This document shows positions 1 to 19,627 of a stretch of DNA of 24,307 bases, one piece after another (the first letter of the stretch is position 1; the number at the start of each line of letters is the position of its first letter). Made by a program: the position numbers and the translations under genes. Source of the DNA: Bacteroidota bacterium (GTDB lineage: Bacteria > Bacteroidota > Bacteroidia > J057); NCBI GenBank assembly GCA_039197765.1, contig JBCCTX010000076.1:1-24307 (forward strand), in the 5' to 3' direction. The notes under the pieces are model-generated. The model saw only the letters and a program-made list of their open reading frames with translations, had not been told where the DNA came from and did not search any database.

Positions 1-88
1 AACCATTCACAAAAAAGTAAACGGAAAAGACACCCTTACCACCATTTCCGTTGATCCGACTACCTACATTAGCAGGTTTAGCCGGAGG

Positions 89-3000
89 TTGAACATTGGA
101 CTAGCATTGGGAAGCATACTTCAAGAATCCAATAATATTACGCTTCCTGATTATTTACTTACAGTATTGGAGAATTCATATCTTTTGAGAAGCGAATTCT
201 TTCCAGATCGTTCCCAGGTTAATTCCTCTGAATTATGGTTTTTTCCGGGAAGAAATTTCATGAACGCCCCTACCTATTTTTTAGCACCTGGACAGGATAC
301 CCTATTTTCCTCTTCACAAGTGTCTGGACAACGAATCAAATTGAAGGCTGAGCAAAATTTCTTCCTAGGATTGGGGGGGACCAAAGCGACCCGAATTTAT
401 AAACAATACCGCGATGGATCCAAGCTCCAACTACGCTTTGAGTTTCCCCAACGCAGAAGGTTAAGGTCAAATGGTCCTCAAGATAGTTCACAGGAGTTGT
501 TTATTTCTTCCTCGACCATAGAAATCTTGCAGAATGACTACGATGCAGGGTATCACTTCCCATTTTTTGAGCGGGATGGACACTTTCTGCATTTCAATGG
601 CCTCTCAAAATACTATTTGGGAGATGCCAGAGATTCTATGGCCTTCTCTATTCTCGACCAATTTAAAAGCACCATTGAACCCTCCATTAAAATTTACAAG
701 GCAGGAGAGATCATACGACTAAGTGCAACAAATTATCGTCAGATCGAGTATGTGAATTCCCTGGGCCAGAAAGCCAGTGCCATAGATGTTAAAGATAGCT
801 TGGGATTTAAGATTATGCGTACGCCTATGGGAGTGCAAGAGACGATCAGCAGAAAGGAATTGAGCACTACAGATAGTACCTCTGCAAGGATCTACCTTAA
901 AAAACACCATTGGTTGTTTTCTTTCCACGATTTATCCGAGACCAACCCCTTGAAGGTATCTTACATTTATGGCTTAATTCTGCTTTGTACCTTATTGAGT
1001 TTTATCGTACTCTTTACCAAGCAGTTGGAAGATATATCCAAAACTGAGGTGATCATCTATGCCTTACTTGTAGGATTTCTAACGCTTCGAATGGTGTTAT
1101 TGTGGCGAACAGCGACCTTCGTTCCCATAGAGGATATCGATAGCAAAGTTTTCCATAAGTTGCGCTCACCGGATTACTTCCAACATACGTTTCAAATCGT
1201 CTGCTGTTTTTATGCTTGTATCGTAGGTGCTTACCTGCTATTTCATAAGTGGGGAACCAATCCCTTAGCCAGCAGATTGAGAGTTGTCCAACTCATCCAT
1301 GAAAAGGAGGATTTCCAAACGGGTAGCCCTTTTGTGCATTGGATGGAAACATATGGCAGGTGGATTGTAGCCTTTTTGCTGAGTTGGGGACTCATTTTTG
1401 TCAGTATGTATTTCTTAGGCGATCTCGCTGAAAGATTTGTCAATATCGCTTTCCCTATCATGGGATTTTTCCTATTGGCCCTTCCCCTGTTTATTGCGTG
1501 GTCAAGTCGGGATTCTGATCAGGACCTATCTCCTTTTGAGGATAGTTTAATTTGGTTATTTGTCCTCAATTGGGCCTCCTGCTGGGTTTGGCTAGTGGTC
1601 CGGGACGCAGGGTTTTCCATTGTATTTTTGCTTTTTAGCCTGTTCAGCTTAGCCTTCTATCTAGGGATTCGGGCAGCTCGAGATGAGGATAATTCAGCTA
1701 CCCTCCGTCTACTTGCCATCGGAATCTTCTCAGGGGTAGCCCTGGGTATATTTTTTTCAACCCATTTATTAGAACATGCAATTGAATACGCTCCTGAAGC
1801 TTTCTATCTCCTCAGTGGGGGGAGCCTAGTGGGCTTAGGGTTCCTGGGAAGACAGATGTTGCGCTATCGAGAGAAGTATCCCCTTTCGGTCAAATTATTT
1901 GGAGGATTAACCTTGGCTCTTTCTCTCTGTTTAGCTGTCTTCGTAGTAGGAGTTGCCCTAGAGAAATTCGAAAATCCAGGGATTGGCGTAAAGCAGAACT
2001 ATACCTACTTGCAGTATCGGGCAGGCATCCACAACAAAAGCTTGGAGAAGATTTCGAAAGAGATAGACTTTGAGAGTAGAAAGAGCATTAAACTCCTTGA
2101 GGCCTCTCAAAACCAATGGTTTATAGACCAAATGTTGCAAAGGGATTCAGATAAGTATTTTTCCCTGCGTCGCCATTTCAACAAAGGAGCCTCCTTTATT
2201 TCCCAGACGACAGATTTGGTTGTATTGCGGTATATCATTGCAGAACATTCCCAGGAGGTAGTCCTAGGCTTGGTTTTATTATTTGGCGTGCTCTTTACTT
2301 GTATTGTATTCGAAACCAAACTGTTTGAACATGCCAATATGGGGCTTGCAGGAGTTGCGCTTCTTCTTACGATTCAGGGCTTTTTTATCTGGATGACTGT
2401 AACCAATAGATTCGCCTTCTTCGGACAAGACTTTCCCCTGTTGAGTATGCAGAGTCGAATGACCTTATTTTTCACGTTTGGCCTTTTCTTATTGATCATC
2501 TTGTTCATCCGTGAGAAGCCTGCTCAGCCCTCGGCCTCGAGTGGGGAAAGCCGTGCAGCGATAGTATCTAAAAATCAGGTTCTCACCTTTTTGTTTCTAT
2601 CCTTAATACCCGTTTTTTTCAAAGGAGGAAAGCGTTCTGGCGGTGAATCCAATCGCTTTTCCCGCTTTACCTTAGGGAAAACCTTAGAAAGTACACAAGC
2701 CAAGTTTAACCAGCTCAATGCTGAGTTTCGCACCTTTCAACGAACGACCAAAGAACGAGATCCTAAAGCGTTGGTTTTGGCCTTCGATAAGTGGGCAAAT
2801 GGGAAAGGGTTTAATTCCTATAAGGCAATAACGGATAGCTTGGGGGAAGACCAATTCACCTCTAGTGTATGGAAACATTTCCTCAGGCAGACGAGCGCAA
2901 AGAAACTCAATGATCCCAATCAAATTCTTCACCTTAAACGCCCCGAATCCCAGTACTACGAATTTGCCGTAAATAACAATTACTACCTACTAAAGACTCC

Positions 3001-5092
3001 AGAAGAGGTTGAAAATCAGTGGATGGGTTCCCTGCTTGGGGCTAAGACCCGCAGTTATTACAAATTCGTTTACAGAAACCAGACAGATCGTCCGACGGTG
3101 AAGATCTATCCAGATAAAATTATATCCAATATCTTTCAAAAAGCAGGCTTAGAGGAGAAAGATTCTGATTTGACCTATTTGAAGGAGGATATCAATAACA
3201 TCACAATATCCTCCTTACCCAAGGACTGGACCCTAAACGGGGATCCCTTGGTATTGATCAGCATAGAGTCAGGGGATGAAAACTCAAATAGAGGGAACTT
3301 TTCTATTGTAAACGACAGGTTGCGTATCAGTTCGAAGAATAATCCTGCAAGGGCATTTGCCTACCGATTGGAGCCTCGGGATTATATCAATTTGCTAGAC
3401 CATCAGGACGAAGCCATTCAGCTCAAGATGATCTCTACTGAAAAGCAATATTTGGCAAAAAACCTATGGTTAAATGGTAAACAAGAACTTTTTTATCCAT
3501 TAGGTAGGAAATCTATCTGGTCTTACAATTATGCAAACCTGTTGAAACAGACCATGGTCAAAGCCGAAAGTTTGGAGGATAAGGATGTAAATGTGTCGAT
3601 AGATTATTCCTTGAGTGAGAGCCTGTATGACCAGGTAGAGTCCCATATGCGCAAGTATGCTTCCTCAGATGCAGACTTCAGCATGGTGGCTATGGATCAC
3701 AAAGGGAGAATACGCACCCTGGTCGATTACAAGAAACCCCCTGCTTCGCAGTTTGATCCAAACAATACTAAAGAGTACTCTGAACTGTTCCAAAAATTCT
3801 ATCTGACGAGCGACCGATCATCCGAACGAAAAATATTTGGTAATCGCTGCCTCCAAAGACTGGATAATGGACCTGGATCTAGCATCAAGCCCATCATGTA
3901 CACTATTGTTACTGCTGGTTCAGGACTCAATTGGAGAAGCCTTGAGTATTTGGGGCCAGATAAAGAGGAACTCGATGCGAATCTGACCTGGAACGGGAAT
4001 GGATACCTAGTCGACCGATACGCAGGAAATAAGATGCAAGGGAGTTGGAATATCCGGAACAATGATATCCAAAGCTACAACAACCTTACCTATCTCTCCC
4101 GCTCAAGTAATATATACCACTCTCTTATCATGTTTCTGGGTTCTTACGAGAAAGAGCAACTCATTGGGCTGGGAAAATCAGGTGGGGGAAAAGAGGCGAT
4201 CTTGATTCCTGTAAGTGGTAAAGACGATAGAGACTTTCCGAAACTCAAGTTTAATGGCCGCTACTATATCCTCAATTCCGATACACATTATTGGCCAGGA
4301 ACCAGATCTGCAGGCCTGTTCAACAACCTTAACTCTGTACTAAGTAATGGATTGGCAGAAAATTTCAAGTTGGAAGTTCAAAAGCCGGTTGATCCCAACC
4401 GCTTGAAAAATCCTCGGTTCTCACCGGATATCTTACCCAGGGACCTACTGCTTTCTTCCCGGTCCTCCTACTTTATTTGGGCCTATCCAGAAATGTCGCA
4501 CTTTTATCAAATTGATAGGAGTGGGTCCAATTATGAAATTACGGGAATCCGGCAAAGCACAGTCGGGGGCTTCCCAATTGAAGTTACGCCCCTGAAAATG
4601 ACGGAGATGGGCCTGAAAATGGCTACCCTCAACAAGGAACTTTATGCTACCCTAGACACCTCAGGAATTAATACGTTTAGTCCCTTCTTCTATGATGAAA
4701 GTCCATCCAAGTGGAAAAGCCTCAAGGACTTTTACCGTTTTCATGCCCAGAATACCATGCAGGGAATGGAAGATGTCCTGTATACTTCGTCAGGGACGGG
4801 TTTCGAACTCGTTGGGAAAAAGCAGACAGAGCGGTATCACCTGTATGCAAAAACAGGTACGATCAAAGGGGAGAAATCATCCTTCAATGATAGACACCTT
4901 TTGTTCATTCTGAGTAAACGTCCTTTGACGGACCCCGAAAACTTCGGAGACTCCGAAGTCGACAATCCCATGTTCGTACTCTACATTTCCTATTTCAACA
5001 GCAGGTCTAAAAATGAAAAGCTCACTCGGAAATTAATAGAAATTGTAAAAAAATCGGATGTATTCCGCTTCACGATGGGAGATGGAAACTAA
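89..5092 (+). CDS. Giant polytopic membrane protein with a C-terminal class-B penicillin-binding-protein (transpeptidase/beta-lactamase-fold) domain. The 5' end may lie upstream of the window.
   Basis: Uninterrupted 1667-codon ORF. The frame is open from nt 2 to the first listed start (TTG at 89), so the true start may be outside the window. Layout: ~285-aa soluble N-terminal region; ~14 predicted TM helices between aa ~287 and ~860 (nt ~947-2670); ~370-aa soluble region; C-terminal domain with the three serine-transpeptidase motifs in canonical order. SxxK is at aa 1264-1267 (GPGSSIKP, nt 3878-3889; compare EPGSTVKP of FtsI). SxN is at aa 1339-1341 (RSSNIY, nt 4103-4111). KTG(T) is at aa 1588-1591 (AKTGTIKG, nt 4850-4861). 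Stop TAA at 5090-5092. Confidence 0.6.
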   Translation: MNIGLALGSILQESNNITLPDYLLTVLENSYLLRSEFFPDRSQVNSSELWFFPGRNFMNAPTYFLAPGQDTLFSSSQVSGQRIKLKAEQNFFLGLGGTKATRIYKQYRDGSKLQLRFEFPQRRRLRSNGPQDSSQELFISSSTIEILQNDYDAGYHFPFFERDGHFLHFNGLSKYYLGDARDSMAFSILDQFKSTIEPSIKIYKAGEIIRLSATNYRQIEYVNSLGQKASAIDVKDSLGFKIMRTPMGVQETISRKELSTTDSTSARIYLKKHHWLFSFHDLSETNPLKVSYIYGLILLCTLLSFIVLFTKQLEDISKTEVIIYALLVGFLTLRMVLLWRTATFVPIEDIDSKVFHKLRSPDYFQHTFQIVCCFYACIVGAYLLFHKWGTNPLASRLRVVQLIHEKEDFQTGSPFVHWMETYGRWIVAFLLSWGLIFVSMYFLGDLAERFVNIAFPIMGFFLLALPLFIAWSSRDSDQDLSPFEDSLIWLFVLNWASCWVWLVVRDAGFSIVFLLFSLFSLAFYLGIRAARDEDNSATLRLLAIGIFSGVALGIFFSTHLLEHAIEYAPEAFYLLSGGSLVGLGFLGRQMLRYREKYPLSVKLFGGLTLALSLCLAVFVVGVALEKFENPGIGVKQNYTYLQYRAGIHNKSLEKISKEIDFESRKSIKLLEASQNQWFIDQMLQRDSDKYFSLRRHFNKGASFISQTTDLVVLRYIIAEHSQEVVLGLVLLFGVLFTCIVFETKLFEHANMGLAGVALLLTIQGFFIWMTVTNRFAFFGQDFPLLSMQSRMTLFFTFGLFLLIILFIREKPAQPSASSGESRAAIVSKNQVLTFLFLSLIPVFFKGGKRSGGESNRFSRFTLGKTLESTQAKFNQLNAEFRTFQRTTKERDPKALVLAFDKWANGKGFNSYKAITDSLGEDQFTSSVWKHFLRQTSAKKLNDPNQILHLKRPESQYYEFAVNNNYYLLKTPEEVENQWMGSLLGAKTRSYYKFVYRNQTDRPTVKIYPDKIISNIFQKAGLEEKDSDLTYLKEDINNITISSLPKDWTLNGDPLVLISIESGDENSNRGNFSIVNDRLRISSKNNPARAFAYRLEPRDYINLLDHQDEAIQLKMISTEKQYLAKNLWLNGKQELFYPLGRKSIWSYNYANLLKQTMVKAESLEDKDVNVSIDYSLSESLYDQVESHMRKYASSDADFSMVAMDHKGRIRTLVDYKKPPASQFDPNNTKEYSELFQKFYLTSDRSSERKIFGNRCLQRLDNGPGSSIKPIMYTIVTAGSGLNWRSLEYLGPDKEELDANLTWNGNGYLVDRYAGNKMQGSWNIRNNDIQSYNNLTYLSRSSNIYHSLIMFLGSYEKEQLIGLGKSGGGKEAILIPVSGKDDRDFPKLKFNGRYYILNSDTHYWPGTRSAGLFNNLNSVLSNGLAENFKLEVQKPVDPNRLKNPRFSPDILPRDLLLSSRSSYFIWAYPEMSHFYQIDRSGSNYEITGIRQSTVGGFPIEVTPLKMTEMGLKMATLNKELYATLDTSGINTFSPFFYDESPSKWKSLKDFYRFHAQNTMQGMEDVLYTSSGTGFELVGKKQTERYHLYAKTGTIKGEKSSFNDRHLLFILSKRPLTDPENFGDSEVDNPMFVLYISYFNSRSKNEKLTRKLIEIVKKSDVFRFTMGDGN

Positions 5093-5103: not shown

Positions 5104-5643
5104 ATGAATATATTAAACGAAATTATTTCGGAGAAATTCCTGTATGCCCTCGGCTTTGGCGTTGCGATCCTACTCATCGGAATCTTTTCCAATCGTTCCG
5201 CAACATTCAATTCTCGGCATGATTTGGCAATACGAAGCGACTCTCTCCACTATCAACTCAATCCCAGGCAGTACGGTGAGATCAGGTATGAGAAATTCCT
5301 GGAGATGATCTATGGCATACAAGCGAAAAACCAGGCAATTGAAGTGGATACCAGTGCACATTTAGGGCATATCAGGATCTACTTTAAAGGAAGTGGGAAT
5401 TATTCTAAATCCTCCTTCAATCGATTCGTCTTCAACAAAATGTCTTCAGACGATTACCCAGATGTCGGGGACTTTGGTCCGTTTTTGAAAGATTCGCTAG
5501 ATATAACCTTGGGATATGAACCAGGAGTATATGGGTTAGAGCTGGAGATTAAGAAAGCACAAGGAGAAAGGTATTTACAAATCCCCTATCAAATGTTGAT
5601 TAGGTTTTTGACGCAACAAAATCAAGTCCTGGTAAAAAAATAA
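5104..5643 (+). CDS. Hypothetical small membrane-anchored protein (one N-terminal TM helix).
   Basis: 179-aa ORF starting 11 nt after the giant gene; A-rich upstream region and no SD, typical of Bacteroidota. N-terminal hydrophobic helix (FLYALGFGVAILLIGIF). No recognisable motifs. Confidence 0.55.
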   Translation: MNILNEIISEKFLYALGFGVAILLIGIFSNRSATFNSRHDLAIRSDSLHYQLNPRQYGEIRYEKFLEMIYGIQAKNQAIEVDTSAHLGHIRIYFKGSGNYSKSSFNRFVFNKMSSDDYPDVGDFGPFLKDSLDITLGYEPGVYGLELEIKKAQGERYLQIPYQMLIRFLTQQNQVLVKK

Positions 5644-5647: not shown

Positions 5648-6445
5648 ATGAAAGTAGCAAATTCTATTCAACAGGTACATGCGCTTCTGGAACAAAATGA
5701 GGTTGAGTTAGGCTTGCGGAAATTGAAACAAATTTCCCCAGAAAAGGAAGAGGAAATCGACCTGGCGGTAAAGGCATACAAAAAGGGAGGACAAAAGGCT
5801 TACCAACTGAAAAAGTATCTCCATGCAGTAGATTACTTCGAAGGAGTAAGAAAACACAGCCAATCCGAAGCCGAAAGAATTGCAGCAGAAAAAAGGATTT
5901 ATTTCTTCCTCTTCCTGCATTATTACACTAAAGGAAACTCCTTGTGGAAGTTAGGAGAGAGAGCCCCAGCTCAAAAGTACTATGAAAATGCCCAACAAGC
6001 CTATGAAAAGTATCCGGAAATGGAGGCAGAGGGAAGTGTAGCAGAGGATAAAGCAAAGGCTTACATGGAGACCTGTTTAGAAAAGATAAAAAACTATTTG
6101 CCATCGAAAGAGGGTACTTCGCCCATACCTGAACTAGCTATTCAAGTTTTTCCTGAGAAAAAAGAAGAAGTAGCCCTGGAAATAGCGCAGAAGAAATCGG
6201 AAGAGAGGCTTCCAATAGAAGCTTCCAACCCAGAGCTAGTGATAGCTGACCGAGTTCGGTTCAAGCTAGAAGTAATAGCAGGCATTGAGTCCTATAAGCT
6301 GCAAAAATTCGATTCGGCACTCCAACACTTTCGTATTGCCTGGAGTATATGTCCGCTAGATAGCCTGAGTCAATTACTCGCAAAGTGTAAGTTAGCCAAC
6401 GAACTCGTAGAGGATTTGGAAAATCTAGAGGCCTCGGAAAACTAG
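5648..6445 (+). CDS. Hypothetical soluble alpha-helical protein.
   Basis: 265-aa ORF starting 4 nt after the previous stop, which suggests translational coupling or an operon. Charged, helix-rich composition; no recognisable catalytic motif. Confidence 0.55.
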   Translation: MKVANSIQQVHALLEQNEVELGLRKLKQISPEKEEEIDLAVKAYKKGGQKAYQLKKYLHAVDYFEGVRKHSQSEAERIAAEKRIYFFLFLHYYTKGNSLWKLGERAPAQKYYENAQQAYEKYPEMEAEGSVAEDKAKAYMETCLEKIKNYLPSKEGTSPIPELAIQVFPEKKEEVALEIAQKKSEERLPIEASNPELVIADRVRFKLEVIAGIESYKLQKFDSALQHFRIAWSICPLDSLSQLLAKCKLANELVEDLENLEASEN

Positions 6446-6537: not shown

Positions 6538-7941
6538 ATGAAATGGCAATCTTTTCTATGGTACCTCGCAACTTCTGACACCCAGATTTTAAATCAGGTG
6601 GAAGACAGGACTGAACGCATTTGGCATTCTATTATCGGAACCTTTGTCCTGATTACAGGGACTTTTGCATTTATTACAGGCAGCTTTACCATGAGCTTGA
6701 TCTTAGGAGAAGGAGGTGCTTCATCCAATCTGCCACCATGGTTTGTCCCCCTTGTCTTTGGATTGATATGGGGGGTACTCATCATTACCATTGACCGCCT
6801 CCTAATTGCTTCCATCGCTACTGAAAGGAGGAATAAATACCTTGCCGCTTTCAACAAAGTGCGCAAAGAAGATACAGCGCCTACTCCCGAGGGGGAGAAG
6901 AATGCTGAGGTAAAAAATAGGGATTGGGCTAAAACTTGGATATTTGTGTGTATTCGATTGGGAATAGCCCTATTAATTTCGCTGCTTATTACCAAGCCTT
7001 TTGAGTTGTGGCTTTATCAGGATCAGATTGCCCTCGAAGCGATGAAGCAAACCCAACAGGAGCGTATGGAGTTTAAAGATAAACTGGTCGAAGACTCTAG
7101 TTTAGATTTTATCAAAGAGAATATCGATAGGGATTCTGCTGAAGTAAAGGGGCTATTTGCAGAAATAAAAAAGGCAGAATGGGTGGAGGAATACCGGGAG
7201 CTACGCAACCAAAAGCGCAGGACTATTCGAGCGAATAGTAGAGAAATACGGAAGATAGAATCCTTCGCTTATCCCCAATATTATAGGGTGGATACGAGCA
7301 AGAGACCCAGTCCTGATACCCTTTTCATCAATGCAAAAGGTGAGCAAGCGATAAAGAATTACAAAAGAAAAAACTATCAGGCTCAGAAGGATACAAGTGA
7401 AGCGAGAAAGCGTCTCTTGAACAAGGGCGTATCCAATAGCGAAATTGTTCGTATGAAAGTGGGTCCGTTGATCACCCAAGTAGAATCGCTAAAAGATTCT
7501 ATCGGTAAGCAACAGGAAGAGCGGGAGAATGAGATTGCTCAAATAGAGGCAGACTCCGATTCAAGCCAAATAATCATCCAACGTTCTATGGACGATTTAT
7601 TCGGAAAATTAGAAGCCTTGCATGCATATGTTTATGATGAAAATAACCCTGATCGAAAGTATATGAGTTGGCTTATCCTATTCATATTTTTGACCATAGA
7701 AACGCTTCCGATTGTATCCAAGATGGCTTCCTCTTCAGGGGAATATGAACGAAGACTGATATCTAGGCACCAGCTATCGATCAATCAACTCGAAAAACTG
7801 GAGTCAAAGGCTATGAGGATGGAGGAGCGCAATACCCGTAAGCGGGAAAGTATCCAAGCTCAGCTTCAGGAATTAACCCAGCTAGAACTTTCTGTGGACA
7901 CCTTTCTGTCGCAATATGACCAGGCCGTGAATGAATCCTAG
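6538..7941 (+). CDS. DUF4407-like membrane protein with a long coiled-coil region.
   Basis: 467-aa ORF. The N-terminus (FLWYLATSDTQILNQVE...IIGTFVLITGTFAFITGSF...LVFGLIWGVLIITIDRLLIAS) matches my memory of the DUF4407 N-terminal signature (W-x-L-A-x-x-D-x-x-x-L, two TM helices, then an [I/F]-x-[I/N]-D-R motif). It is followed by a ~200-aa highly charged, heptad-like region and another hydrophobic segment (YMSWLILFIFLTIETLPIV). Family assignment is from memory only. Confidence 0.55.
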   Translation: MKWQSFLWYLATSDTQILNQVEDRTERIWHSIIGTFVLITGTFAFITGSFTMSLILGEGGASSNLPPWFVPLVFGLIWGVLIITIDRLLIASIATERRNKYLAAFNKVRKEDTAPTPEGEKNAEVKNRDWAKTWIFVCIRLGIALLISLLITKPFELWLYQDQIALEAMKQTQQERMEFKDKLVEDSSLDFIKENIDRDSAEVKGLFAEIKKAEWVEEYRELRNQKRRTIRANSREIRKIESFAYPQYYRVDTSKRPSPDTLFINAKGEQAIKNYKRKNYQAQKDTSEARKRLLNKGVSNSEIVRMKVGPLITQVESLKDSIGKQQEERENEIAQIEADSDSSQIIIQRSMDDLFGKLEALHAYVYDENNPDRKYMSWLILFIFLTIETLPIVSKMASSSGEYERRLISRHQLSINQLEKLESKAMRMEERNTRKRESIQAQLQELTQLELSVDTFLSQYDQAVNES

Positions 7942-7959: not shown

Positions 7960-9153
7960 TTAATTTTTCGTCAGGCTAGGATCTATGGCTTTTTCATAAA
8001 GCCCTAGGCAGATCTTCATTCGTAAAATACGTTTAACAGATGCCTCATGGAGGGACATCATATCAGGAGAGTTGAGCAGTTCCTCCCTTATTTGATGGAT
8101 TAATTCAACACTAAGCTGGGGAGCTAATAGCAAGTCGTTGCCAGCTTTTAAGGCCAATAGCACAGCATTGGGAATTTCGGACACCCCCTTCATATCCATG
8201 GCATCCGTTAAAATGAGTCCTTCAAATCCCATCTTCTTGCGCAGGAGCTGTTGGATAATATTTTCAGATAAGGTAGCCGGTAATCCCTGGGTATCGTATT
8301 CACTATTCCCACGCACGCCAATATGTCCTACTAAAATGGATAATACACCTACATCTATGGCTGCTTCAAATGCAGGAAGTTCTGTGAGTTCCCCCTCTAT
8401 GAATACGGTTTCCAGGTGGCTATCTCCTTGAACCTTCCCATGTCCAGGAAAATGTTTGGCTGTTGCTACCATGCCCATCCCTTGGGTTTCTCGTATAAAC
8501 GTTTGAATGCGAGGTTTTGCTGCTGTGATTTCGTATCCAAAGGATCGCTTGGCAACCAAGCTACTGGGGGATGCAATATCGCAAACTGGAGCCAGATTTA
8601 AATGGAATCCAAGTTTGGCCAAATACCCGGTCATATCGATGGCCATTTCCTTGACATCGAAGTCAGATTCCAACTGATCTGCATAGGTGTGTAATTGGGA
8701 AGGACTCGCAGGTAGGCGAGCGTGTAAAATGCCAGGCTCTCCATCAATCATAAAAAGCAGCGGGACACCCAAGGATTGCAAATTGTACTGCCTAAATTGG
8801 GATAGGTCCGTAGCAATTTGAGACTGCTTCTCCAGAACGAGAATCCCAGCTATTTGATGTTGGGCTATTCTATGGAATAGGAGTTCGCGCTCTTGCTCGT
8901 ATTTACCCGTGTAAGCAGTAATAATTCGTTGCCCAATGCTTGCTTCCAGGCTAAGGTGTTCATACAGGGAGTCTGTCGCCTGATCTAACAAAGGATTTGA
9001 GTTGAAGAAATCCTTCAGGGTGAAAAGAGAAAGCGCATCTGTAGGCGTTAGAGAAACCGTTTCAGTTGGGGTATTTTTCGACTTTTTTGTGGGAGTCTCA
9101 CACCCAAAAAGAAATAGACCTAGTATGGTGAAGAAGGCAAGGTGATTATTCAT
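7960..9153 (-). CDS. nagZ: Glycoside hydrolase family 3 N-terminal-domain protein, NagZ-like beta-N-acetylhexosaminidase, lipoprotein.
   Basis: 397-aa single-domain GH3. KHFPGHGKVQGDSHLE matches the NagZ catalytic-region signature KHFPGHG...DSH. LGFHLNLAPVCDIAS matches GFN(L/F)N(F/L)APV(L/C)D. N-terminal lipoprotein signal (FFTILGLFLFGCETP). Convergent with, and 18 nt from, the upstream plus-strand gene. Confidence 0.8.
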   Translation of the reverse strand: MNNHLAFFTILGLFLFGCETPTKKSKNTPTETVSLTPTDALSLFTLKDFFNSNPLLDQATDSLYEHLSLEASIGQRIITAYTGKYEQERELLFHRIAQHQIAGILVLEKQSQIATDLSQFRQYNLQSLGVPLLFMIDGEPGILHARLPASPSQLHTYADQLESDFDVKEMAIDMTGYLAKLGFHLNLAPVCDIASPSSLVAKRSFGYEITAAKPRIQTFIRETQGMGMVATAKHFPGHGKVQGDSHLETVFIEGELTELPAFEAAIDVGVLSILVGHIGVRGNSEYDTQGLPATLSENIIQQLLRKKMGFEGLILTDAMDMKGVSEIPNAVLLALKAGNDLLLAPQLSVELIHQIREELLNSPDMMSLHEASVKRILRMKICLGLYEKAIDPSLTKN

Positions 9154-11609: not shown

Positions 11610-13268
11610 CTACTTCAATACCTCAAATGTAGTAGTTTCTGTATCTTCAAAGCCAAATTCATCTTTTGCGAAGATCTCCACCGAATGAATTCCAGGTTCT
11701 AATTCTGGAAGCCTATACTGCCAGATGTGGGATGATACTGCCGGAGGTTGATAGGCATCGGGGGTATTTTCATATTTCTCGTATTCCCTTGCGTAGCCCG
11801 GGTCTGTCTGCTCGACATACTCCATGGCAATGGGGGAATCCCCATCCAAAGAGATATGAACTTCATCCCTTTCTCCTCCATCAAAGAAATTAACAACGAT
11901 ATAGGTGCTATCCTGTTGTATTCCTCGGTCTAGCTCTACCGGATTCCCTTCAAAAGGAAGTAAGGGAGGATCTAGCATTATTCGCAAGCGGTCTGTGGGA
12001 TCGCCACCTGCAGGAATAAACCTAGGGCGCATGTGGGCTCCTTCAAAATAGAACACATAGTATCCATTGGGGTTACCATCTTCCATAGTTGCCGCTCGAA
12101 CTCCGCGTTCATCACGAGGTCCTTTCTCCCAGCCACTTCCTCGAACTTCAGCCAAGGTATGGGCGATAAAAGGACGGCCGTACCATCCGTGGCGGTGATT
12201 CACCTCAACTTTCCAACTATTGCTAGTATCATGGCCTGAGATGGTATAGATGTGTTCAAATCGACTTAGGATCTTCAGAAGTTCCTTGAAATTGTCTGTA
12301 TTTATACCTTCAGGGAAAGATCTGTTGTCGGCATAAGTTATCAAGGGAATATGAGTGAGGATAATGATGAGTTTATCCGAGGGAACATCCTGCAAGTCAT
12401 TCTCAACCCATTGCATCTGAAGGGAATCTATATGCCCAATATAGCCCTGCTCTTTGCCCAGGTAACCAACATTGTTAAGCGCCAAGAAATGCACTGACCC
12501 ATAGTCAAAAGAGTAGTAATCAGGTCCAAATACACGTTTGAAGGTTTGCGTAGCCAATTGATAAGTAGGAGATTCTTGATTAAGGTCGTGATTCCCCGGT
12601 ACATTCCACATGGGGATATTTATTTGGGCCATGAGTCGGTTATGGCGCTCATAGAGAGCGAGGTTGTCGTTGACCACATCACCCGCAACCAGGCCAAACT
12701 TGGCCTCATAGGGATTGCCAAAAAGTTCGTCTATGATGTCCTTGCGCATCATGTCCAGGTCTTCGTGGGTTCCGGTTTGGGGATCGGCGAAGCCCATGGC
12801 CTTGAAAGTATCAGCAGGTGTTTCCTTAAATAAGGCAAAATCGATTCGCTCAGGCAAAGGGCCAGTAGGTTCTATCACGGGCCATTTCCAATTGGCTATA
12901 TCAGGGGTCCCTTCTGGATAGTGATGGTAGTAAAATTGAGGGAGTTGGACTTCATTGAGGGGAAGGCGGTAACTAGCAGGTTTGGAGAGGAACAAGGTTC
13001 TTCCGGGAGGAAGGGCGATTTGATAGGTACCCTGTGCATCGGTATGAACTACCTCTACTCCGTTAGAGATTTTCACATTGGGAATACCAGATTCCCCAGG
13101 GTCGTAAAGGTCGTTTTGGTTACTGTCCAGATAGACGGTGCCTTGGGCTTGTTGAGCTTGGAGAGGAACTTGTGAGAGAACAGGAATCGAAAATAGAGAA
13201 GCCAGGATTACATAGTTCACAATCCTGTGGTTTTTATTACCTATAAGGATAGGAAGCAATAAATCCAT
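11610..13268 (-). CDS. Calcineurin-like metallophosphoesterase with signal peptide and C-terminal beta-rich extension.
   Basis: Metallophosphoesterase motifs GDVVNDN (GDxxDR-like) and GNHD are present (FGLVAGDVVNDN...WNVPGNHDLN). The listed ORF extends to 13532, but that N-terminal extension overlaps the upstream flotillin gene and has no signal peptide. ATG at 13268 gives MDLLLPILIGNKNHRIVNYVILASLFSIPVLSQ, a plausible signal peptide, and removes the overlap, so the start is placed at 13268 (552 aa). Confidence 0.7.
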   Translation of the reverse strand: MDLLLPILIGNKNHRIVNYVILASLFSIPVLSQVPLQAQQAQGTVYLDSNQNDLYDPGESGIPNVKISNGVEVVHTDAQGTYQIALPPGRTLFLSKPASYRLPLNEVQLPQFYYHHYPEGTPDIANWKWPVIEPTGPLPERIDFALFKETPADTFKAMGFADPQTGTHEDLDMMRKDIIDELFGNPYEAKFGLVAGDVVNDNLALYERHNRLMAQINIPMWNVPGNHDLNQESPTYQLATQTFKRVFGPDYYSFDYGSVHFLALNNVGYLGKEQGYIGHIDSLQMQWVENDLQDVPSDKLIIILTHIPLITYADNRSFPEGINTDNFKELLKILSRFEHIYTISGHDTSNSWKVEVNHRHGWYGRPFIAHTLAEVRGSGWEKGPRDERGVRAATMEDGNPNGYYVFYFEGAHMRPRFIPAGGDPTDRLRIMLDPPLLPFEGNPVELDRGIQQDSTYIVVNFFDGGERDEVHISLDGDSPIAMEYVEQTDPGYAREYEKYENTPDAYQPPAVSSHIWQYRLPELEPGIHSVEIFAKDEFGFEDTETTTFEVLK

Positions 13269-13297
13269 GAAAAGGTAATTTAGGCTTAAACAATTTT

Positions 13298-13322
13298 GGG
13301 GGTCCTGAGGACCCCCAATTTT
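13298..13322 (-). terminator. Perfect GC-rich hairpin between flotillin and the metallophosphoesterase gene; a terminator or attenuator candidate.
   Basis: GGGGGTCC-TGA-GGACCCCC (8-bp perfect stem, 3-nt loop) at 13298-13316. On the minus strand it is followed by AAAATTGTTT, which is only partly U-rich. On the plus strand it is followed by AATTTTCC. It lies 20 nt downstream of the flotillin stop. Strand and function are ambiguous. Confidence 0.35.
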
Positions 13323-13335
13323 CCATTCATAATTT

Positions 13336-14967
13336 TCAACTTTCAATTCCCTCTTCTTCTTTTCCATTTTCCTTAATGATTTCCACCTCCACCTCTTCTT
13401 GCTGTTTCTTGGCCAGGTAATCGGGTAGTTCCAACCCTGCCATTTGGAAGAGTTCAGCCAAAGGAGGCATAGACTGATAGAGCCCTGAGATAAAGCGGGA
13501 GGTTGAAGTTCCTTCCCCATGGCCATTTCCACCTCCGCCTTCCCAGACCGTAACCTTGTCGATCTTGATATTCTTGATGGCCTCTACCTGGAGTTCTACC
13601 AATTCGGGTAATTTGTCCGCAATCATCAGCAATACCGCTTCGCGGGCCTCGCCATTGGCGGCTTTGACGATCTTATCGAATCCTTCGGCTTGCTTACTCA
13701 AGATTTCAAATAAGCCCATCGCTTCAGCTTGTCGCTTGGCCAGAATCGCATCAGCGTCCCCTTTCGCCAGTTCGCGAATGCGTTCCGCTTCTGCCTGGGC
13801 TTTGATGACGGCCTTCTGCTTTTCAATCTCTGCCTGGACGATGATGTCCGCTTGCTTTTGGGCCATTTCACGTTGGGCACGGGCCTCTTCTGCTTCTTTT
13901 TCCGCTTTGTATGCCTCTTCCAGGGCTTTGGCTTTTTGAATTTTTTCGGCAGCAGTTGCGCGGCTATTGGCTTCTGCTTCTTTTTCCCGACGCTGAGCCT
14001 CAGAATTGGCAATGGTGATTTTAGCAAGGTTTTCCCCTTCGACTGCCTGGGCGTTGGCCTCGGCTTCACCCACCTTAGCCTGTGCTTCTGCATTGGCTAC
14101 CTGAATTCTTTCTTCCTGTTTGATTTTTGCAACCCCTGCTGCTGCCAAACTATTGGCTTCCGCTTCCCTTTCACGGCGCTTTGCCTCTGAATTTGCCACC
14201 GTGATTTTAGCGAGGTTTTCCCCTTCTACAGACTGGGCATTGGCTTCAGCCTCACCGACTTTTGCGGTTGCTTCCGAGTTGGCGACTTCTACGCGCTCCT
14301 CTTGCTGGGCTTTTGCCTCTCCGATAGAGCCATCACGGGTTTTTTCGGCTACCAGTTTACGTGCCTGGTTTACGGCTTGTGCTGCTGCTTCCTTACCCAA
14401 AGCTTCAATATATCCCGACTCATCATGAATATCCGTTACGTTTACGTTGATGAGGTTGAGACCGATTTTTTTCAATTCTGAACCTACATTGGTATATACA
14501 TTTTCAACAAACTTGTCCCTGTCAGCATTGATTTCCTCTATGTCCATCGTGGCAATTACCAGACGCATTTGTCCTACTATAATATCCTGGGCCAAATCAC
14601 GGATACTCTCCATCTTGAGCCCTAGCAAACGATTGGCAGCATTTTCCATGATACCGGGTTCGTTGGAGATACCTACAGTGAAGCGCGAGGGAACATCCAT
14701 ACGAATATTCTGACGGCTTAATGCACCCGTTAAATTTACCTCTATAGATAAGGGAGTCAGGTCGAGAAACTGATAGGATTGAAAAACCGGTACGACAAAG
14801 GCTGCCCCTCCATGTATACACTTGGAAGCCCCTTGCCCCGTTTTTCCATAAACTACCAGAATCTTGTCGGATGGGCAACGCTTGTACTGAATGACAAACA
14901 ATATGAGTAGTAGGAATAAAATTCCTATCGCTACGAGCAAAACACTTGTGAAGGTTGACATGGGCAT
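13336..14967 (-). CDS. Flotillin-like SPFH/band-7 protein (YqiK/FloT-like) with EA-rich repeat region.
   Basis: 543 aa. N-terminal TM helix (VLLVAIGILFLLLILFVI). An SPFH-like core (KILVVYGKTGQG... through VGISNEPGIMENAANRLLGLKMESIRDLAQDIIVGQMRLVIATMDIEEIN) is followed by a long Ala/Glu-rich coiled region, as is typical of bacterial flotillins. It is immediately downstream of a YqiJ/NfeD-like gene on the same strand, which is the classic pairing. Confidence 0.85.
   Translation of the reverse strand: MPMSTFTSVLLVAIGILFLLLILFVIQYKRCPSDKILVVYGKTGQGASKCIHGGAAFVVPVFQSYQFLDLTPLSIEVNLTGALSRQNIRMDVPSRFTVGISNEPGIMENAANRLLGLKMESIRDLAQDIIVGQMRLVIATMDIEEINADRDKFVENVYTNVGSELKKIGLNLINVNVTDIHDESGYIEALGKEAAAQAVNQARKLVAEKTRDGSIGEAKAQQEERVEVANSEATAKVGEAEANAQSVEGENLAKITVANSEAKRREREAEANSLAAAGVAKIKQEERIQVANAEAQAKVGEAEANAQAVEGENLAKITIANSEAQRREKEAEANSRATAAEKIQKAKALEEAYKAEKEAEEARAQREMAQKQADIIVQAEIEKQKAVIKAQAEAERIRELAKGDADAILAKRQAEAMGLFEILSKQAEGFDKIVKAANGEAREAVLLMIADKLPELVELQVEAIKNIKIDKVTVWEGGGGNGHGEGTSTSRFISGLYQSMPPLAELFQMAGLELPDYLAKKQQEEVEVEIIKENGKEEEGIES
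13963..14301 (-). repeat. Internal in-frame tandem duplication inside the flotillin gene: two ~51-aa units separated by an ~11-aa linker.
   Basis: Protein units EERVEVANSEATAKVGEAEANAQSVEGENLAKITVANSEAKRREREAEANS (aa 223-273) and EERIQVANAEAQAKVGEAEANAQAVEGENLAKITIANSEAQRREKEAEANS (aa 285-335). The DNA copies are clearly similar, e.g. ...gtgattttagcaaggttttccccttcgactgcctgggcgttggcctcggcttcaccc... and ...gtgattttagcgaggttttccccttctacagactgggcattggcttcagcctcaccg... Confidence 0.8.
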
Positions 14968-16066: not shown

Positions 16067-17449
16067 ATGAACCACCAAAAGATCTTCTTCTGGTCGATTA
16101 CTGTCGCACTCGCAGGATTCCTCTTTGGCTTTGATACTGTGGTTATATCTGGTGCAGATCAGGCCTTACAAGAATTATGGAATGTAGACCTCCGCTTATT
16201 TGGAGGAAGTATTCACCTATCCCCTGAATTATTTCACGGAACAGTTGTCATGGGGACTGCTTTGATGGGAACAGTCATTGGAGCAATCTTAGGGGGAATA
16301 CCAACCGATCGGTTTGGGAGAAAGAAGACCTTATTGGGAATTGGATTGCTTTACTTTATCTCGGCGGTGGGTTCAGCCTTGGCCAACGATCCCTATATTT
16401 TTGGCCTCTTTAGATTTGTTGGAGGCCTAGGCGTTGGAGCTTCTACCGTGGCTGCACCTGCTTATATTTCCGAAATTGCCCCTTCAGAAAGAAGGGGAAG
16501 GCTAGTAGCATTATATCAGTTTAATATCGTTTTTGGGATTTTACTTGCATTCATTTCCAACTATTTACTGAGAGGGGTAGGGACCGAGCCTTGGCGTTGG
16601 ATGATAGGAGCAGAAGCCTTTCCAGCATTTATATACACGATCATGGTGTTCACCATTCCCAATAGCCCCCGATGGCTTCTGACCTATAAGGGAGATCGCG
16701 AAGGGGCTTCCGAGGTGCTGAAAATGATAAACCTGGAGGAAGATCCCAAGGTCATGCTACAGCAAATTGAGGAAGATCAGAACCAAGTGGATAAGTCGGA
16801 AAGTATCTTTCAAGCACGGTACAGAATCTTACTCATATTGGCCTTTCTCATTGCGTTTTTCAATCAATTATCAGGTATAAATGCCTTTTTGTATTACGCT
16901 CCACGAATATTTGAAGCAGCAGGTTTGGGAGAAAGTACCGCCTTATTGAGTAGTATAGGGATTGGAGTAGCTAATTTGATCTTTACCCTACTAGGGCTTT
17001 ATTTGATCGATAAACTGGGGAGAAAAATTCTCATGTATATAGGGTCAGTAGGCTATATAGTCTCCCTAGGTATGGTAGCAGTAGCTTTTTTCTTAAGTTG
17101 GCAGGGATTGGCTATTCCAATATTCTTGTTTCTGTTTATCGCTTCCCATGCTATTGGGCAGGGAGCTGTAATTTGGGTATTTATATCAGAAATCTATCCC
17201 AACCATCTCCGGGCATATGGACAGTCTTTCGGGAGTTCTACACACTGGGTTCTTGCTTGGCTTATAACCACCTTTATGCCGGCTGTTTTGGCTCGGGTAA
17301 GCAATCCTGGATATGTATTCGCATTCTTCTCGGGAATGATGGTTTTACAGCTGTTATTTGTATGGCGAATGATGCCGGAAACTAAAGGGGTACCGTTAGA
17401 AGAATTGCAAGATAAATTACTTCGAAATAAACCCTCACTATCTGCCTAG
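16067..17449 (+). CDS. MFS sugar-porter family transporter, likely a fructose/sucrose-type sugar:H+ symporter.
   Basis: 460 aa, 12 TM helices. Sugar-porter signatures GRKKTLL (loop 2-3 G-R-[KR]) and PNSPRWLL (the PESPRWL motif). Immediately upstream of a GH32 gene on the same strand. Confidence 0.85.
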   Translation: MNHQKIFFWSITVALAGFLFGFDTVVISGADQALQELWNVDLRLFGGSIHLSPELFHGTVVMGTALMGTVIGAILGGIPTDRFGRKKTLLGIGLLYFISAVGSALANDPYIFGLFRFVGGLGVGASTVAAPAYISEIAPSERRGRLVALYQFNIVFGILLAFISNYLLRGVGTEPWRWMIGAEAFPAFIYTIMVFTIPNSPRWLLTYKGDREGASEVLKMINLEEDPKVMLQQIEEDQNQVDKSESIFQARYRILLILAFLIAFFNQLSGINAFLYYAPRIFEAAGLGESTALLSSIGIGVANLIFTLLGLYLIDKLGRKILMYIGSVGYIVSLGMVAVAFFLSWQGLAIPIFLFLFIASHAIGQGAVIWVFISEIYPNHLRAYGQSFGSSTHWVLAWLITTFMPAVLARVSNPGYVFAFFSGMMVLQLLFVWRMMPETKGVPLEELQDKLLRNKPSLSA

Positions 17450-17533
17450 AGAGCTTTTCCCAAATTCTATTTTTCGAACCAGAACACTACCTATTAGTTT
17501 CACTCACATTCAAAATCCCTAATTTCTTTTCCT

Positions 17534-19627
17534 ATGGTACGCGATGTGATAGACCATATCTTAAATATCAAGTCCCTGTTTCTCGGGTTATGGATAGTCG
17601 GGGCCTGTCAAACGCCTCAGAAATCGGTAGGTAATTCTTCTTCGGCCTACTACACCGAAGATCACCGCCCTCAAATTCACTTTTCTCCCGATTCCATGTG
17701 GATGAATGACCCCAATGGGATGGTCTACTACGAGGGAGAATACCACCTTTTTTATCAATATCATCCAGAAAGCACCGTATGGGGACCCATGCACTGGGGG
17801 CACGCAGTGAGCCCGGACCTGGTTCATTGGGAGCACTTACCCATAGGCATTTTTCCCGACAGTCTGGGAACGATTTTTTCCGGTAGTGCCGTAGTAGATA
17901 GGAAGAATACCAGTGGCTTCGGAGAGGAAGGTAAGCCTCCGTTGATCGCGATTTTTACCCAGCATAGCCATGAACTCTATGATGCAGGCTCTGACCTCTT
18001 TCAAACCCAAGGTATAGCCTATAGCAATGACAAGGGGAGAACCTGGACCAAGTATGAAGGAAATCCCGTCATCCCCAATCCGGGCATAAGGGACTTTCGC
18101 GATCCCAAGGTCCGTTGGCACGAGGAAAGCCAACATTGGGTTATGATATTTGCTGCTAAAGATCGGGTAAAGATCTATACCTCCCCGAACCTCAAAACCT
18201 GGACCCAGGCATCGGAATTTGGGAAAAATATAGGCACACATGCTGGGGTATGGGAATGTCCGGATTTATTTCCGTTGCAAGTGGAGGGATCGACAGAAAC
18301 CAAATGGGTGATGCTGGTAAGCATCAATCCCGGGGGACCTAATGGAGGGTCGGCTACCCAGTACTTTGTGGGGGACTTTGATGGGAAAACCTTCACCCTG
18401 GACTCAGAATTTGCAACACGCCTGGGTTCTACGAAGGCAAGAGTTCCTCAAGGAAGGCTATATGACACATTTGAAGGGGGAGACTTTGGCGAGTGGAAGG
18501 TAGAAGGGGAGGCCTTTGGCAGCCGCCCCAGCGATGGGAGGGTAGGGGAACAGCAGGAAGTTTTGGGCTTCACAGATAAACGCCTAATCAATAGCTTTCA
18601 CGGTGGAGATGCCAGTACTGGAATCCTTAGCTCCCCCATATTTGTCAACGAATATCCCTACATCAATTTTCAGATTGGGGGAGGGCGCCATCCGGGTTCA
18701 ACAGCCATTCAGTTATGGGCGGATGGAGAAATAGTACGCACCGCAACGGGAAACAATAGCGAAAAGCTTCGCTGGCATCATTGGGACGTATCTGAATTCT
18801 TGGGAAGATCCCTACAGATCAAAATTGTCGATGCCCATGAAGGCGGTTGGGGGCATATCCTAGTGGATCAGATTCTATTTGCTAATGAGCCTGCCACGCC
18901 TGCCATCGAAAAAGCCAAATGGCTTGAATACGGAAGGGATAATTACGCAGGAGTTACCTGGTCGGATATACCCGAATCCGATGGCAGGAGAATTTTCTTG
19001 GGATGGATGAGCAATTGGGACTATGCCCAACGCGTACCAACTTCAAAGTGGCGGAGTGCCATGACTTTACCTCGGGCACTAGAGCTTGTCGAAGTCCCCC
19101 AAGGCCTGACCCTTCGCTCCCAACCGGTAAAAGAATTGACAGAACTTCGATTAGAAGAAATGGGAAGCTACAGTTTTCCATCACTAGAAACGGACACTCC
19201 CTTAATGAGCGGGATAAAGGGCCCAATAGAAGCAATTCTAGAATTCGAAGTAGACGAAGACTCAAACAAGGAGCTACAGGTAGGACTGGAACTATCCAAT
19301 TCTGTTGGAGAATTCTATCGAGTCTTGTATGATAGAGGTTCAAATTCCTATGTGAGCGATAGGACCCTGGCTGGGAAAAAGGATTTCTCAGATATTTTTG
19401 CCTTTGAGGTACATGATGCCCCTAGATTGACAGATGCCTCTGCCATCCAGATGCATCTTTATTTTGATCTGGCGTCTATGGAGCTCTTCGCCGATCAAGG
19501 ATTGACAGTAATGACCGATATTTTTTTCCCAAATCAGAACTTTTCCCAATTGCGTTTGGTATGTAAAGGAGGTAAAATTAAAGGGGGGAAGTTGACCCTG
19601 CATTCCTTAGGAAGGATCTGGGAATAG
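17534..19627 (+). CDS. Glycoside hydrolase family 32 (levanase / beta-fructofuranosidase) with C-terminal beta-sandwich extension, lipoprotein-type signal.
   Basis: Canonical GH32 motifs. WMNDPNG (HFSPDSMWMNDPNGMVYYEGEYHLFYQYHP) carries the nucleophile Asp. FRDPKV is the RDP motif. WECPD is the EC motif with the acid/base Glu. The N-terminus ends LWIVGACQTP, which is lipobox-like. 697 aa. Confidence 0.9.
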   Translation: MVRDVIDHILNIKSLFLGLWIVGACQTPQKSVGNSSSAYYTEDHRPQIHFSPDSMWMNDPNGMVYYEGEYHLFYQYHPESTVWGPMHWGHAVSPDLVHWEHLPIGIFPDSLGTIFSGSAVVDRKNTSGFGEEGKPPLIAIFTQHSHELYDAGSDLFQTQGIAYSNDKGRTWTKYEGNPVIPNPGIRDFRDPKVRWHEESQHWVMIFAAKDRVKIYTSPNLKTWTQASEFGKNIGTHAGVWECPDLFPLQVEGSTETKWVMLVSINPGGPNGGSATQYFVGDFDGKTFTLDSEFATRLGSTKARVPQGRLYDTFEGGDFGEWKVEGEAFGSRPSDGRVGEQQEVLGFTDKRLINSFHGGDASTGILSSPIFVNEYPYINFQIGGGRHPGSTAIQLWADGEIVRTATGNNSEKLRWHHWDVSEFLGRSLQIKIVDAHEGGWGHILVDQILFANEPATPAIEKAKWLEYGRDNYAGVTWSDIPESDGRRIFLGWMSNWDYAQRVPTSKWRSAMTLPRALELVEVPQGLTLRSQPVKELTELRLEEMGSYSFPSLETDTPLMSGIKGPIEAILEFEVDEDSNKELQVGLELSNSVGEFYRVLYDRGSNSYVSDRTLAGKKDFSDIFAFEVHDAPRLTDASAIQMHLYFDLASMELFADQGLTVMTDIFFPNQNFSQLRLVCKGGKIKGGKLTLHSLGRIWE

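Follow-up and report, generated by a model that had tools for sequence, protein, structure and literature searches.

What kind of protein joins a polytopic membrane module to a complete penicillin-binding protein in one polypeptide? The question is raised by a 24,307-nucleotide stretch of DNA from a Bacteroidota bacterium (GenBank assembly GCA_039197765.1, contig JBCCTX010000076.1; hereafter the window), whose first 5.1 kb carry an open reading frame (ORF) listed at 89..5092 on the forward strand. A sequence-only reading of this ORF described some 14 transmembrane (TM) helices followed by a penicillin-binding protein of class B (bPBP), and left a choice between an unusual fusion of a SEDS-like protein to a bPBP and a novel membrane module. 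Our analysis upholds the first branch of that choice, as the fold search gives SEDS, and goes against the second, as the fold is not new; we consider it fairly probable that the product of the fusion gene is a SEDS-bPBP-type synthase of the cell wall, with both functions in a single chain.

The listed ORF is not the complete gene. Its frame is free of stops back to base 2, confirming that the ORF is still open at the window edge, and the upstream residues are supplied by P0001, a protein of 1,895 residues from the gene calls of an independent Logan contig; the search matched it to the window protein at 100%, and direct reading shows one I/T difference. Because bases 2-88 encode TIHKKVNGKDTLTTISVDPTTYISRFSRR, which corresponds to P0001 residues 200-228, translation does not start at the TTG at 89, and the listed ORF lacks 228 upstream residues; judged from P0001, the predicted true start of this giant gene is about 600 nt upstream of the window. 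Residue numbers below refer to P0001 unless given as window residues (window residue N is P0001 residue N+228). From the N to the C terminus, the fusion protein consists of a two-helix membrane hairpin, a beta-rich domain of ~470 residues, a polytopic module of SEDS fold and a short cytoplasmic loop, followed by one more TM helix, a helical bundle with a pedestal, and a transpeptidase with intact SxxK, SxN and KTGT motifs. GC content is uniform, at about 0.43. The parts that fall within the window are these:

2..5092, + strand: 3' part (5.1 kb) of the giant SEDS-like/bPBP fusion gene, covering residues 200-1895 of 1,895 (frame open from base 2, match to P0001)
2..955, + strand: beta-rich N-terminal domain, C-terminal two-thirds (whole domain ~470 residues, 47-517; predicted periplasmic)
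956..2506, + strand: SEDS-fold membrane module, 13 TM helices, residues 518-1034
1604..1615, + strand: DAGF turn between two TM helices on the periplasmic face, D734 invariant in 43 sequences; possible counterpart of the SEDS 'PDLG' Asp
1958..2251, + strand: large periplasmic loop, residues 852-949, counterpart of SEDS extracellular loop 4 (ECL4); position relative to the TM helices from the AlphaFold model
2204..2242, + strand: QTTDLVVLRYIIA, degenerate SEDS 'HTDFIFxxxxEE' motif, to which SEDS hidden Markov model (HMM) positions 256-356 align; candidate catalytic Asp, D937, at 2213-2215
2423..2455, + strand: GQDFPLLSMQS in the last periplasmic loop, counterpart of SEDS 'G.PLP..SYGGS'; G1007, Q1008, D1009, P1011 and S1014 invariant
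2552..2617, + strand: fourteenth TM helix, the PBP anchor, residues ~1050-1071 (hydropathy; AlphaFold helix 1048-1065; loop charges)
2672..3673, + strand: juxtamembrane helical bundle and beta-rich pedestal, residues ~1090-1423, pLDDT mostly >80; holds FYPLG (3491-3505) and SIDYSL (3596-3613)
3674..5089, + strand: transpeptidase domain, residues 1424-1895 (motifs and Foldseek)
3878-3889, + strand: SxxK (SSIK), window residues 1264-1267, by direct reading
4103-4111, + strand: SxN (SSN), window residues 1339-1341, by direct reading
4850-4861, + strand: KTGT, window residues 1588-1591, by direct reading

Assignment of the C-terminal part to the class-B PBPs comes from fold and motifs together. 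An AlphaFold model of residues 1040-1895 (the C-terminal 856 residues, built on a 43-sequence alignment) reached a pLDDT of 84.5 and a pTM of 0.86, and when it was compared with the PDB by Foldseek the top 50 matches were all class-B PBPs (E 3.5e-11 to 6e-10), including Y. pestis PBP2, E. faecium PBP5, several PBP3s, SpoVD and PBP2a. Because the alignments cover 570-925 columns and reach well upstream of the transpeptidase, they take in the pedestal. With one TM helix ahead of the soluble part, the transpeptidase fold is preceded by both a pedestal and a single TM anchor, which bears out the complete bPBP of the sequence-only reading; the pedestal-sized soluble region described there is a stretch of ~355 residues between the last TM helix and the transpeptidase, made up of a helical bundle of ~80 residues and then the beta-rich pedestal.

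The three active-site motifs occur in the order SxxK, SxN, KTGT at the positions first read, and are retained in a family alignment of 104 sequences with 20-60% identity to the window protein. The Ser and Lys of SxxK and the Ser and Asn of SxN are invariant in this alignment, and KTGT is invariant in the smaller alignment of 43 sequences and at least 90% conserved in the larger. An insertion had been suspected from the long spacing between SxN and KTG, and the measured distance of 247 residues, ~100 of them inserted, confirms it. The order of motifs in the family (FYPLG, SIDYxL, FSxVAxDGxGxIRxL, DPNN, GPGSSxKP, SxN, KTGT) follows what we take to be the canonical bPBP order, RxYPxG, LTIDxxLQ, AxVVxDxxTGxILA, FxPN, PGSxFKP, SxN, KTG.

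The membrane module was approached in the same way, with an AlphaFold model of residues 1-1100 (pLDDT 83.7, pTM 0.84). The sole real match by TM-score in Foldseek was E. coli RodA (0.58 target-normalised, probability 0.99), followed by FtsW and T. thermophilus RodA. The structural matches, each with its score and extent, were:

E. coli RodA, 8tj3_B: 18.1, 302 of 341
T. thermophilus RodA, 6pl5_A: 17.6, 298 of 336
P. aeruginosa FtsW, 8bh1_A: 17.1, 297 of 348
WaaL, 7tpj_B: 9.3, 294 of 403
All others: <= 8.7, short helical or beta fragments

As modelled, the membrane module is a SEDS fold with added helices, and is neither a new fold nor a transporter. Hydropathy and AlphaFold helices agree on 14 TM helices inside the window (residues 518-1071), the number counted in the sequence-only reading, with two more in the N-terminal hairpin outside the window. 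The view taken there that 14 helices are too many for a SEDS fold does not hold, since the 10-TM core is present together with the large periplasmic loop ahead of the last three helices; the six helices beyond the core are the PBP anchor and five additional ones. Ten helices of the module precede the large loop; after it come three TM helices, equivalent to SEDS TM8-10, then a cytoplasmic loop of ~13 residues and the anchor helix, an arrangement in which the cooperation of a SEDS protein with its cognate bPBP takes the form of a covalent fusion. Net loop charge alternates over all 16 helices, the predicted cytoplasmic loops being all positive and the short periplasmic ones zero or negative, and on this ground the N-terminal beta domain, the 98-residue loop and the PBP are placed in the periplasm.

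Conservation within the module follows this topology. Residues that are invariant or nearly so are E548, R562, W567, R568, P574, P684, D734, G736, R872, G928, Q934, D937, R942 and E947; F1005, G1007, Q1008, D1009, P1011 and S1014 are invariant, and N903, Q904, W905, N1001 and R1002 are at least 90% conserved and not fully invariant. The ECL4-like loop alone carries R872, NQWFI (903-907), Q934, D937, R942 and E947, each invariant or at least 90% conserved. Most of the conserved residues lie at periplasmic helix ends or in periplasmic loops, as a SEDS-type active site would predict, and the polar ones are all on the predicted periplasmic face, the side occupied by the PBP domain.

Traces of SEDS remain in the sequence as well. 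An HMM was built from 10 RodA sequences, the relatives gathered being from Enterobacterales only at 85-96% identity and the E. coli RodA query being 100% identical to 8tj3_B, and was run unfiltered against 103 family membrane modules. The best matches reached 11.4 bits, and 11 of the top 12 aligned HMM positions ~252-360 to one family segment, all in one register; reversed and shuffled controls gave at most 6.0 and 6.7 bits, respectively, at scattered positions. The alignments pair 'rHTDFIFa..vlAEElG' with 'qTTDLVItRYVLAEH-G', and 'GvPLPlvSYGGS' with 'GQDFPFISLQSR'. The family carries two putative degenerate SEDS motifs, QTTDLVVxRYIxAEH, which includes the invariant D937, and FFGQDFPxxSxxS, with TTDLVV..AEH as the counterpart of HTDF..EE.G and GQDFPxxS as that of PLPxxSYGGS. 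In weak HMM alignments RodA D262 falls on D937 in 23 of 103 members, and the region of SEDS P337 falls on QDFP in 46 of 103. SEDS D159 is placed on D734 in 8 of 10 listed contexts, in alignments at noise level, which makes the Asp of DAGF a suggestive counterpart of that of 'PDLG'. Compared with wild-type T. thermophilus RodA, the 6bas (D255A) sequence is changed at the 'HTDF' Asp, which identifies this residue as the mutated one. The weak HMM signal is consistent with very remote homology and is not significant alone. The faint echoes of SEDS motifs first remarked on, YGRWIV and LLSGGSLVGLGF, lie in non-conserved columns of the family and represent chance resemblance, the degenerate motifs being elsewhere; a by-eye match of 'FxPxE' to the SEDS 'FQPSE' was also dropped, as the HMM alignments back it in one sequence only.

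The same architecture is found throughout a large family. A word-index search returned 16 relatives of 1,750-2,030 residues, all of them Bacteroidota proteins, and a second such search with the family alignment as query added just one new member. An exhaustive search with a membrane-module profile yielded at least 309 cluster representatives (50% identity) at E <= 1e-3, with 209 at E <= 1e-30. The best 150 of the 309 are all family members, remote families not being reached among the matches listed; nearly all have 1,700-2,100 residues with the module at the same position, and about a dozen shorter entries are probably truncated. More than 150 independent relatives of 1,700-2,100 residues have the membrane module in the same place, and ~100 align over their full length. 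Because so many relatives share the layout, the motifs are kept and GC content is flat, a frameshift or an assembly join between two ordinary genes, which the sequence-only reading had allowed for, is excluded, as are chance motifs.

Across 78 loci examined, 70 of them from one-genome-per-species representatives, all hosts are Bacteroidota by organism label except one metagenome-assembled genome (MAG) labelled Cyanobium. This locus (L049, Cyanobium sp. NIES-981 MAG) and another labelled Chitinophaga pinensis MAG (L076) have the gene layout and coordinates of Emticicia loci, so both contigs are probably mis-binned or mislabelled. The hosts include Spirosomataceae (Dyadobacter, Runella, Persicitalea, Emticicia, Lacihabitans), Chitinophagaceae (Taibaiella, Edaphocola, Sediminibacterium) and Bacteroidales (Prevotella, Alistipes, Paludibacter, rumen MAGs). 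In a Lacihabitans MAG (L014/L019), in Emticicia sp. W12TSBA100-4 (L022/L050) and in an Emticicia MAG (L016/L078), the whole locus is present twice, as divergent copies that both have a protein A (described below) of their own. No match to the family was found by tblastn in 72,556 plasmids and 50,697 phages, and an origin in mobile elements was rejected on this basis. A full-length homologue from Spongiimicrobium salis (P0017), which came from the protein search and lies outside the 78 loci, carries the NCBI name 'SLC5/6 family protein'; as the fold search on the model gives SEDS and no transporter fold, this name looks like a mis-annotation that could spread.

The fusion gene belongs to a conserved five-gene operon (A, B, fusion, S, T), of which the following lie in the window or, for A, in related loci:

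5104..5643, + strand: S, 179-residue single-pass membrane protein with one N-terminal TM helix, 11 nt after the giant gene
5648..6445, + strand: T, 265-residue soluble protein with sub-threshold TPR matches, 4 nt after S
6538..7941, + strand: DUF4407 membrane protein (PF14362, E 1.6e-37), last gene on this strand
Upstream of the giant gene in other loci: protein A, at L002:3825-6932, L003:2779-5244, L005:4533-6884, L006:3785-6418 and L008:6598-8979

The giant gene, S and T follow one another at intervals of 4-11 nt, which suggests that they are co-transcribed. Homologues of S (about 150 residues) lie directly downstream of the giant gene in 37 loci and homologues of T (255-446 residues) occur in 44, and DUF4407 is kept after T only in L001, which is the window's own contig, L002 and L009, the window's clade. 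Upstream, protein A (about 800-1,035 residues) is present in 68 of the 78 loci, and between it and the giant gene there is usually a gene, B/b, of variable length with one or a few predicted TM helices; the window's own contig ends before the position of A. Protein A was found to have no TM helix and no signal peptide. It has four invariant motifs, DFGSE.SQ, SESDA, IDxGKGTTDFS and LTGR.F in that order, which we take to be the phosphate-1, connect-1, phosphate-2 and adenosine motifs of the actin/Hsp70 (ASKHA) fold. Against the PDB, a 5-sequence profile of A matched MreB or Hsp70 nucleotide-binding domains in 28 of 28 cases (E 0.27-1.3), as did nearly all matches of a 38-sequence profile (E 0.06-1), and the recurrent Pfam matches are DDR (15 of 38), MreB_Mbl (8 of 38) and MreB-like_C (2 of 38), presumably all actin-like ATPase families.

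Our proposed mechanism brings these elements together. The SEDS-like module would polymerise a lipid-linked disaccharide-peptide, lipid II or a close analogue, in a periplasm-facing cavity, the elements of which would be D937 in the ECL4-like loop, D734 and the loop with GQDFP. The growing glycan strand would run along the pedestal to the fused transpeptidase, where S1492 would attack the D-Ala-D-Ala stem and cross-link the strand into the wall, as in RodA-PBP2 and FtsW-FtsI. The enzyme may be part of a dedicated machine encoded by the operon, with the ATPase-type protein A (~830 residues, cytoplasmic), the single-pass B of variable size and the small S and T, which would parallel MreB, RodZ and MreC around RodA-PBP2; A could organise or regulate the enzyme from the cytoplasm in the manner of MreB or FtsA. 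Since the family is sporadic within Bacteroidota, the system is probably an accessory to the housekeeping synthases of elongation and division.

A number of results weigh against this interpretation. Among 15 family members scanned with Pfam, PF01098 (SEDS) gave no match at E <= 0.1, PF03717 (pedestal) was undetected, and PF00905 (transpeptidase) gave a match at E <= 0.1 in only three, the best at E 1.6e-5. The sequence-only reading had staked the transpeptidase on a PF00905 match, and formally the window protein almost lacks one (E 0.13, 11.8 bits, below the gathering cut-off of 22.1); this near-absence is overridden by the fold and motif evidence. PDB searches with the single C-terminal sequence and with 6-, 10-, 15- and 104-sequence profiles returned no significant PBP or SEDS, the three larger profiles again finding no SEDS, and produced one sub-threshold match to PBP1B around 'GTA...KTGT'; a membrane-module profile matched nothing in the PDB. 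The Pfam and NCBIfam scans of the window protein gave sub-threshold matches only. Neither PF01098 nor a significant profile match thus places the module in SEDS by sequence, and hhalign of the family module against RodA keeps the same register at a probability of 0.3%, with a thin SEDS profile (Neff 1.7). D937 is a candidate catalytic Asp on the strength of sub-threshold alignments. For protein A, no Pfam family reaches threshold and each match is sub-threshold, all pointing in one direction, and together they indicate an actin/Hsp70-type ATPase core. Finally, with both modules this far diverged, the substrate might be something other than canonical lipid II. By these scans, both modules escape the standard domain databases and the family is invisible to Pfam-A in all its parts.

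The last of these points leads to the alternative that survives best, although we regard it as unlikely: that the same fold serves another polymer, with the membrane module polymerising or ligating a non-peptidoglycan lipid-linked glycan by Wzy- or WaaL-like chemistry and the PBP-like domain working as an acyl-transferase or peptidase on another substrate, either D-Ala-D-Ala-like or a peptide, for instance in anchoring or cross-linking a surface glycopolymer. The O-antigen ligase WaaL does have a SEDS-type membrane fold, but it scores about half as high as the SEDS proteins, which score twice WaaL, and is without a fused PBP; Wzy_C (PF04932) gave no match in the Pfam scans of the window protein and its relatives. 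Also against this alternative, the C-terminal part, pedestal included, has structural relatives among the bPBPs only, and the three PBP motifs are strictly kept. To our knowledge, a bPBP pedestal fused to or paired with a SEDS fold has so far been linked to peptidoglycan only.

Considerably less probable is a sensor or scaffold, in which the SEDS part would be dead and the PBP-like domain would sense beta-lactams or muropeptides, as in BlaR1/MecR1 or PASTA-type proteins, and signal by way of the membrane module to the cytoplasmic ATPase. The family resembles BlaR1/MecR1 in having a polytopic membrane part fused to an extracellular penicillin-binding domain, its operon encodes the large ATPase-like protein of the cytoplasm and one that is TPR-like, single loci have a gene for an ECF sigma factor or a PP2C phosphatase close by, and the N-domain has weak FHA-like matches. 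In BlaR1, however, the membrane part is an M56 zinc protease and the sensor, which lacks a pedestal, is similar to a class-D beta-lactamase, whereas the membrane part found here is of SEDS fold and the soluble part is matched by bPBPs. Neither an M56 peptidase nor a kinase module turned up in the Pfam scans, pedestal-bearing bPBPs make up the structural neighbours, with no class-D beta-lactamase or BlaR sensor domain among the top 50, and the neighbouring regulators are not conserved across loci. A dead scaffold is also hard to square with a membrane part in which ~20 polar residues of the periplasmic face are invariant, including acidic ones at SEDS-motif positions. An M56 peptidase fused to a transpeptidase domain has been described in relation to beta-lactamase expression (PMC12516126). 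An artefact, whether a transporter gene and a PBP gene joined by frameshift or chimeric assembly or an SLC5/6-type transporter as the NCBI label on the S. salis homologue would have it, has a negligible chance of being right: the window does come from a metagenome-type contig, but the family-wide layout, full-length alignments, loci and fold search refute it.

A comparison of the proposed single-chain synthase with known systems shows differences in composition. RodA-PBP2 and FtsW-FtsI (PDB 8TJ3, 6PL5, 8BH1, 8P1U) are pairs of chains of ~370 and ~600 residues, and the single chain of 1,895 residues found here shows no significant sequence similarity to them. In addition, it has the ~470-residue beta-rich domain, six helices, the helical bundle before the pedestal and the ~100-residue insertion in the transpeptidase, and its operon partners are unrelated in sequence to MreC, MreD, RodZ and FtsQLB. 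Closer counterparts are provided by a 2025 survey of 117 InterPro-detectable SEDS-bPBP chimeras, described as 'bifunctional class B' and averaging ~950 residues, with examples from Rhodococcus jostii (947 residues), Paraphotobacterium marinum and Pedobacter ginsengisoli (1,341 residues) (PMC12516126). The R. jostii chimera has the order glycosyltransferase, pedestal, transpeptidase and its gene adjoins mreB, and some SEDS proteins bear outward-facing beta-rich regions (PMC12516126). The giant family shares with these chimeras a SEDS-fold glycosyltransferase and a bPBP transpeptidase in one chain, the R. jostii order and a neighbouring gene of cytoskeletal type. In contrast, the described chimeras (~800-1,350 residues) are recognised by both PF01098 (IPR001182) and PF00905 (IPR001460) and the giant family by neither; it is about twice as long, and constitutes a separate large family that is essentially confined to Bacteroidota and has its own conserved five-gene operon. 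Describing the architecture as new, as the sequence-only reading did, was therefore too strong, since SEDS-bPBP fusions are known; no description of the giant family itself was found in full-text literature searches. What sets the giant family apart is the double length, the added periplasmic domain, the five extra helices, the invisibility to Pfam and the conserved operon with its actin/Hsp70-like ATPase.

Pfam scans of B/b, S and T gave no consistent family, the window's S drawing no match, and a tblastn search of the retrieved loci for canonical SEDS genes found none. In the Bacteroidales branch (L003:13625-15334, L005:15568-16557 and other loci), S and T are replaced by a membrane-anchored protein with a transglutaminase core, often with an M50B-like membrane protein in the S/T place as well, and ahead of A there is an extra protein, A0, of ~785 residues, which has one TM helix and a signal peptide. 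In one Lacihabitans locus (L008:2425-5987), the stretch just upstream of the operon encodes, on the operon's strand, an ECF sigma factor, a TPR protein and a caspase-like C14 peptidase, an arrangement not seen in other loci with inspected gene calls. A role in defence, suggested by DUF4407 and a nearby BrxL gene, was rejected, as PADLOC matched neither the giant protein nor A, B, S, T, DUF4407, A0 or the protein with the transglutaminase core, and these neighbours are not conserved. The other annotated features of the window are:

7960-9153, - strand: glycoside hydrolase family 3 gene with a NagZ-like N-terminal domain (E 1.2e-47), converging on the operon
11610-13532 and 13336-14967, - strand: metallophosphoesterase and SPFH/Band-7 ORFs, overlapping by ~200 nt as listed
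16067-20832, + strand: sugar-utilisation cluster with an MFS sugar transporter (E 2.9e-101), a GH32 fructan hydrolase-type protein (697 residues) and a xylose-isomerase-like TIM-barrel

The family 3 hydrolase gene adjoins the operon on the window's contig and is absent at this position in L002, a 55%-identical relative, so that any tie to cell-wall recycling lacks conservation. For the 11610-13532 ORF, the GTG start is probably over-extended, as the calls on an identical contig are shorter (585 and 541 residues). A 628-residue ORF after the sugar-utilisation cluster has no Pfam match, and Rfam, tRNA and terminator scans of the window found nothing relevant.

In conclusion, SEDS-bPBP pairs are core engines of bacterial growth and division and major antibiotic targets, and surveys of their diversity lean on Pfam and InterPro models. 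A large enzyme group, of at least 309 clusters at 50% identity and present in 70 species-representative genomes, escapes those models; its hosts include the cultured genera Dyadobacter, Runella, Emticicia, Taibaiella and Edaphocola as well as Prevotella, Alistipes and Paludibacter of gut and rumen. A natural single-chain SEDS-bPBP with extra domains would be useful for structures that address how polymerisation and cross-linking are coupled, and the association of a wall synthase with an actin/Hsp70-type ATPase is a candidate new partnership. More tentatively, and as a reading that we consider less likely than not, the operon (A, B, fusion, S, T) might be a complete third, Bacteroidota-specific morphogenetic peptidoglycan machine with its own cytoskeleton-like organiser, evolutionarily distinct from the elongasome and the divisome. 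Such a machine would have escaped notice since each of its components lies under the detection limit of sequence profiles; it would build or remodel some specialised region of the wall, e.g., one cell pole, the septum of a filament, a resting stage or a patch for stress repair, and would give the Bacteroidota of gut, rumen and soil a beta-lactam target that has not been listed before.

The role of a third wall synthase in Bacteroidota is a question that can be tested in genetically tractable isolates. Should the substrate prove not to be peptidoglycan, this family would provide the first SEDS-fold/PBP pair used for another polymer.

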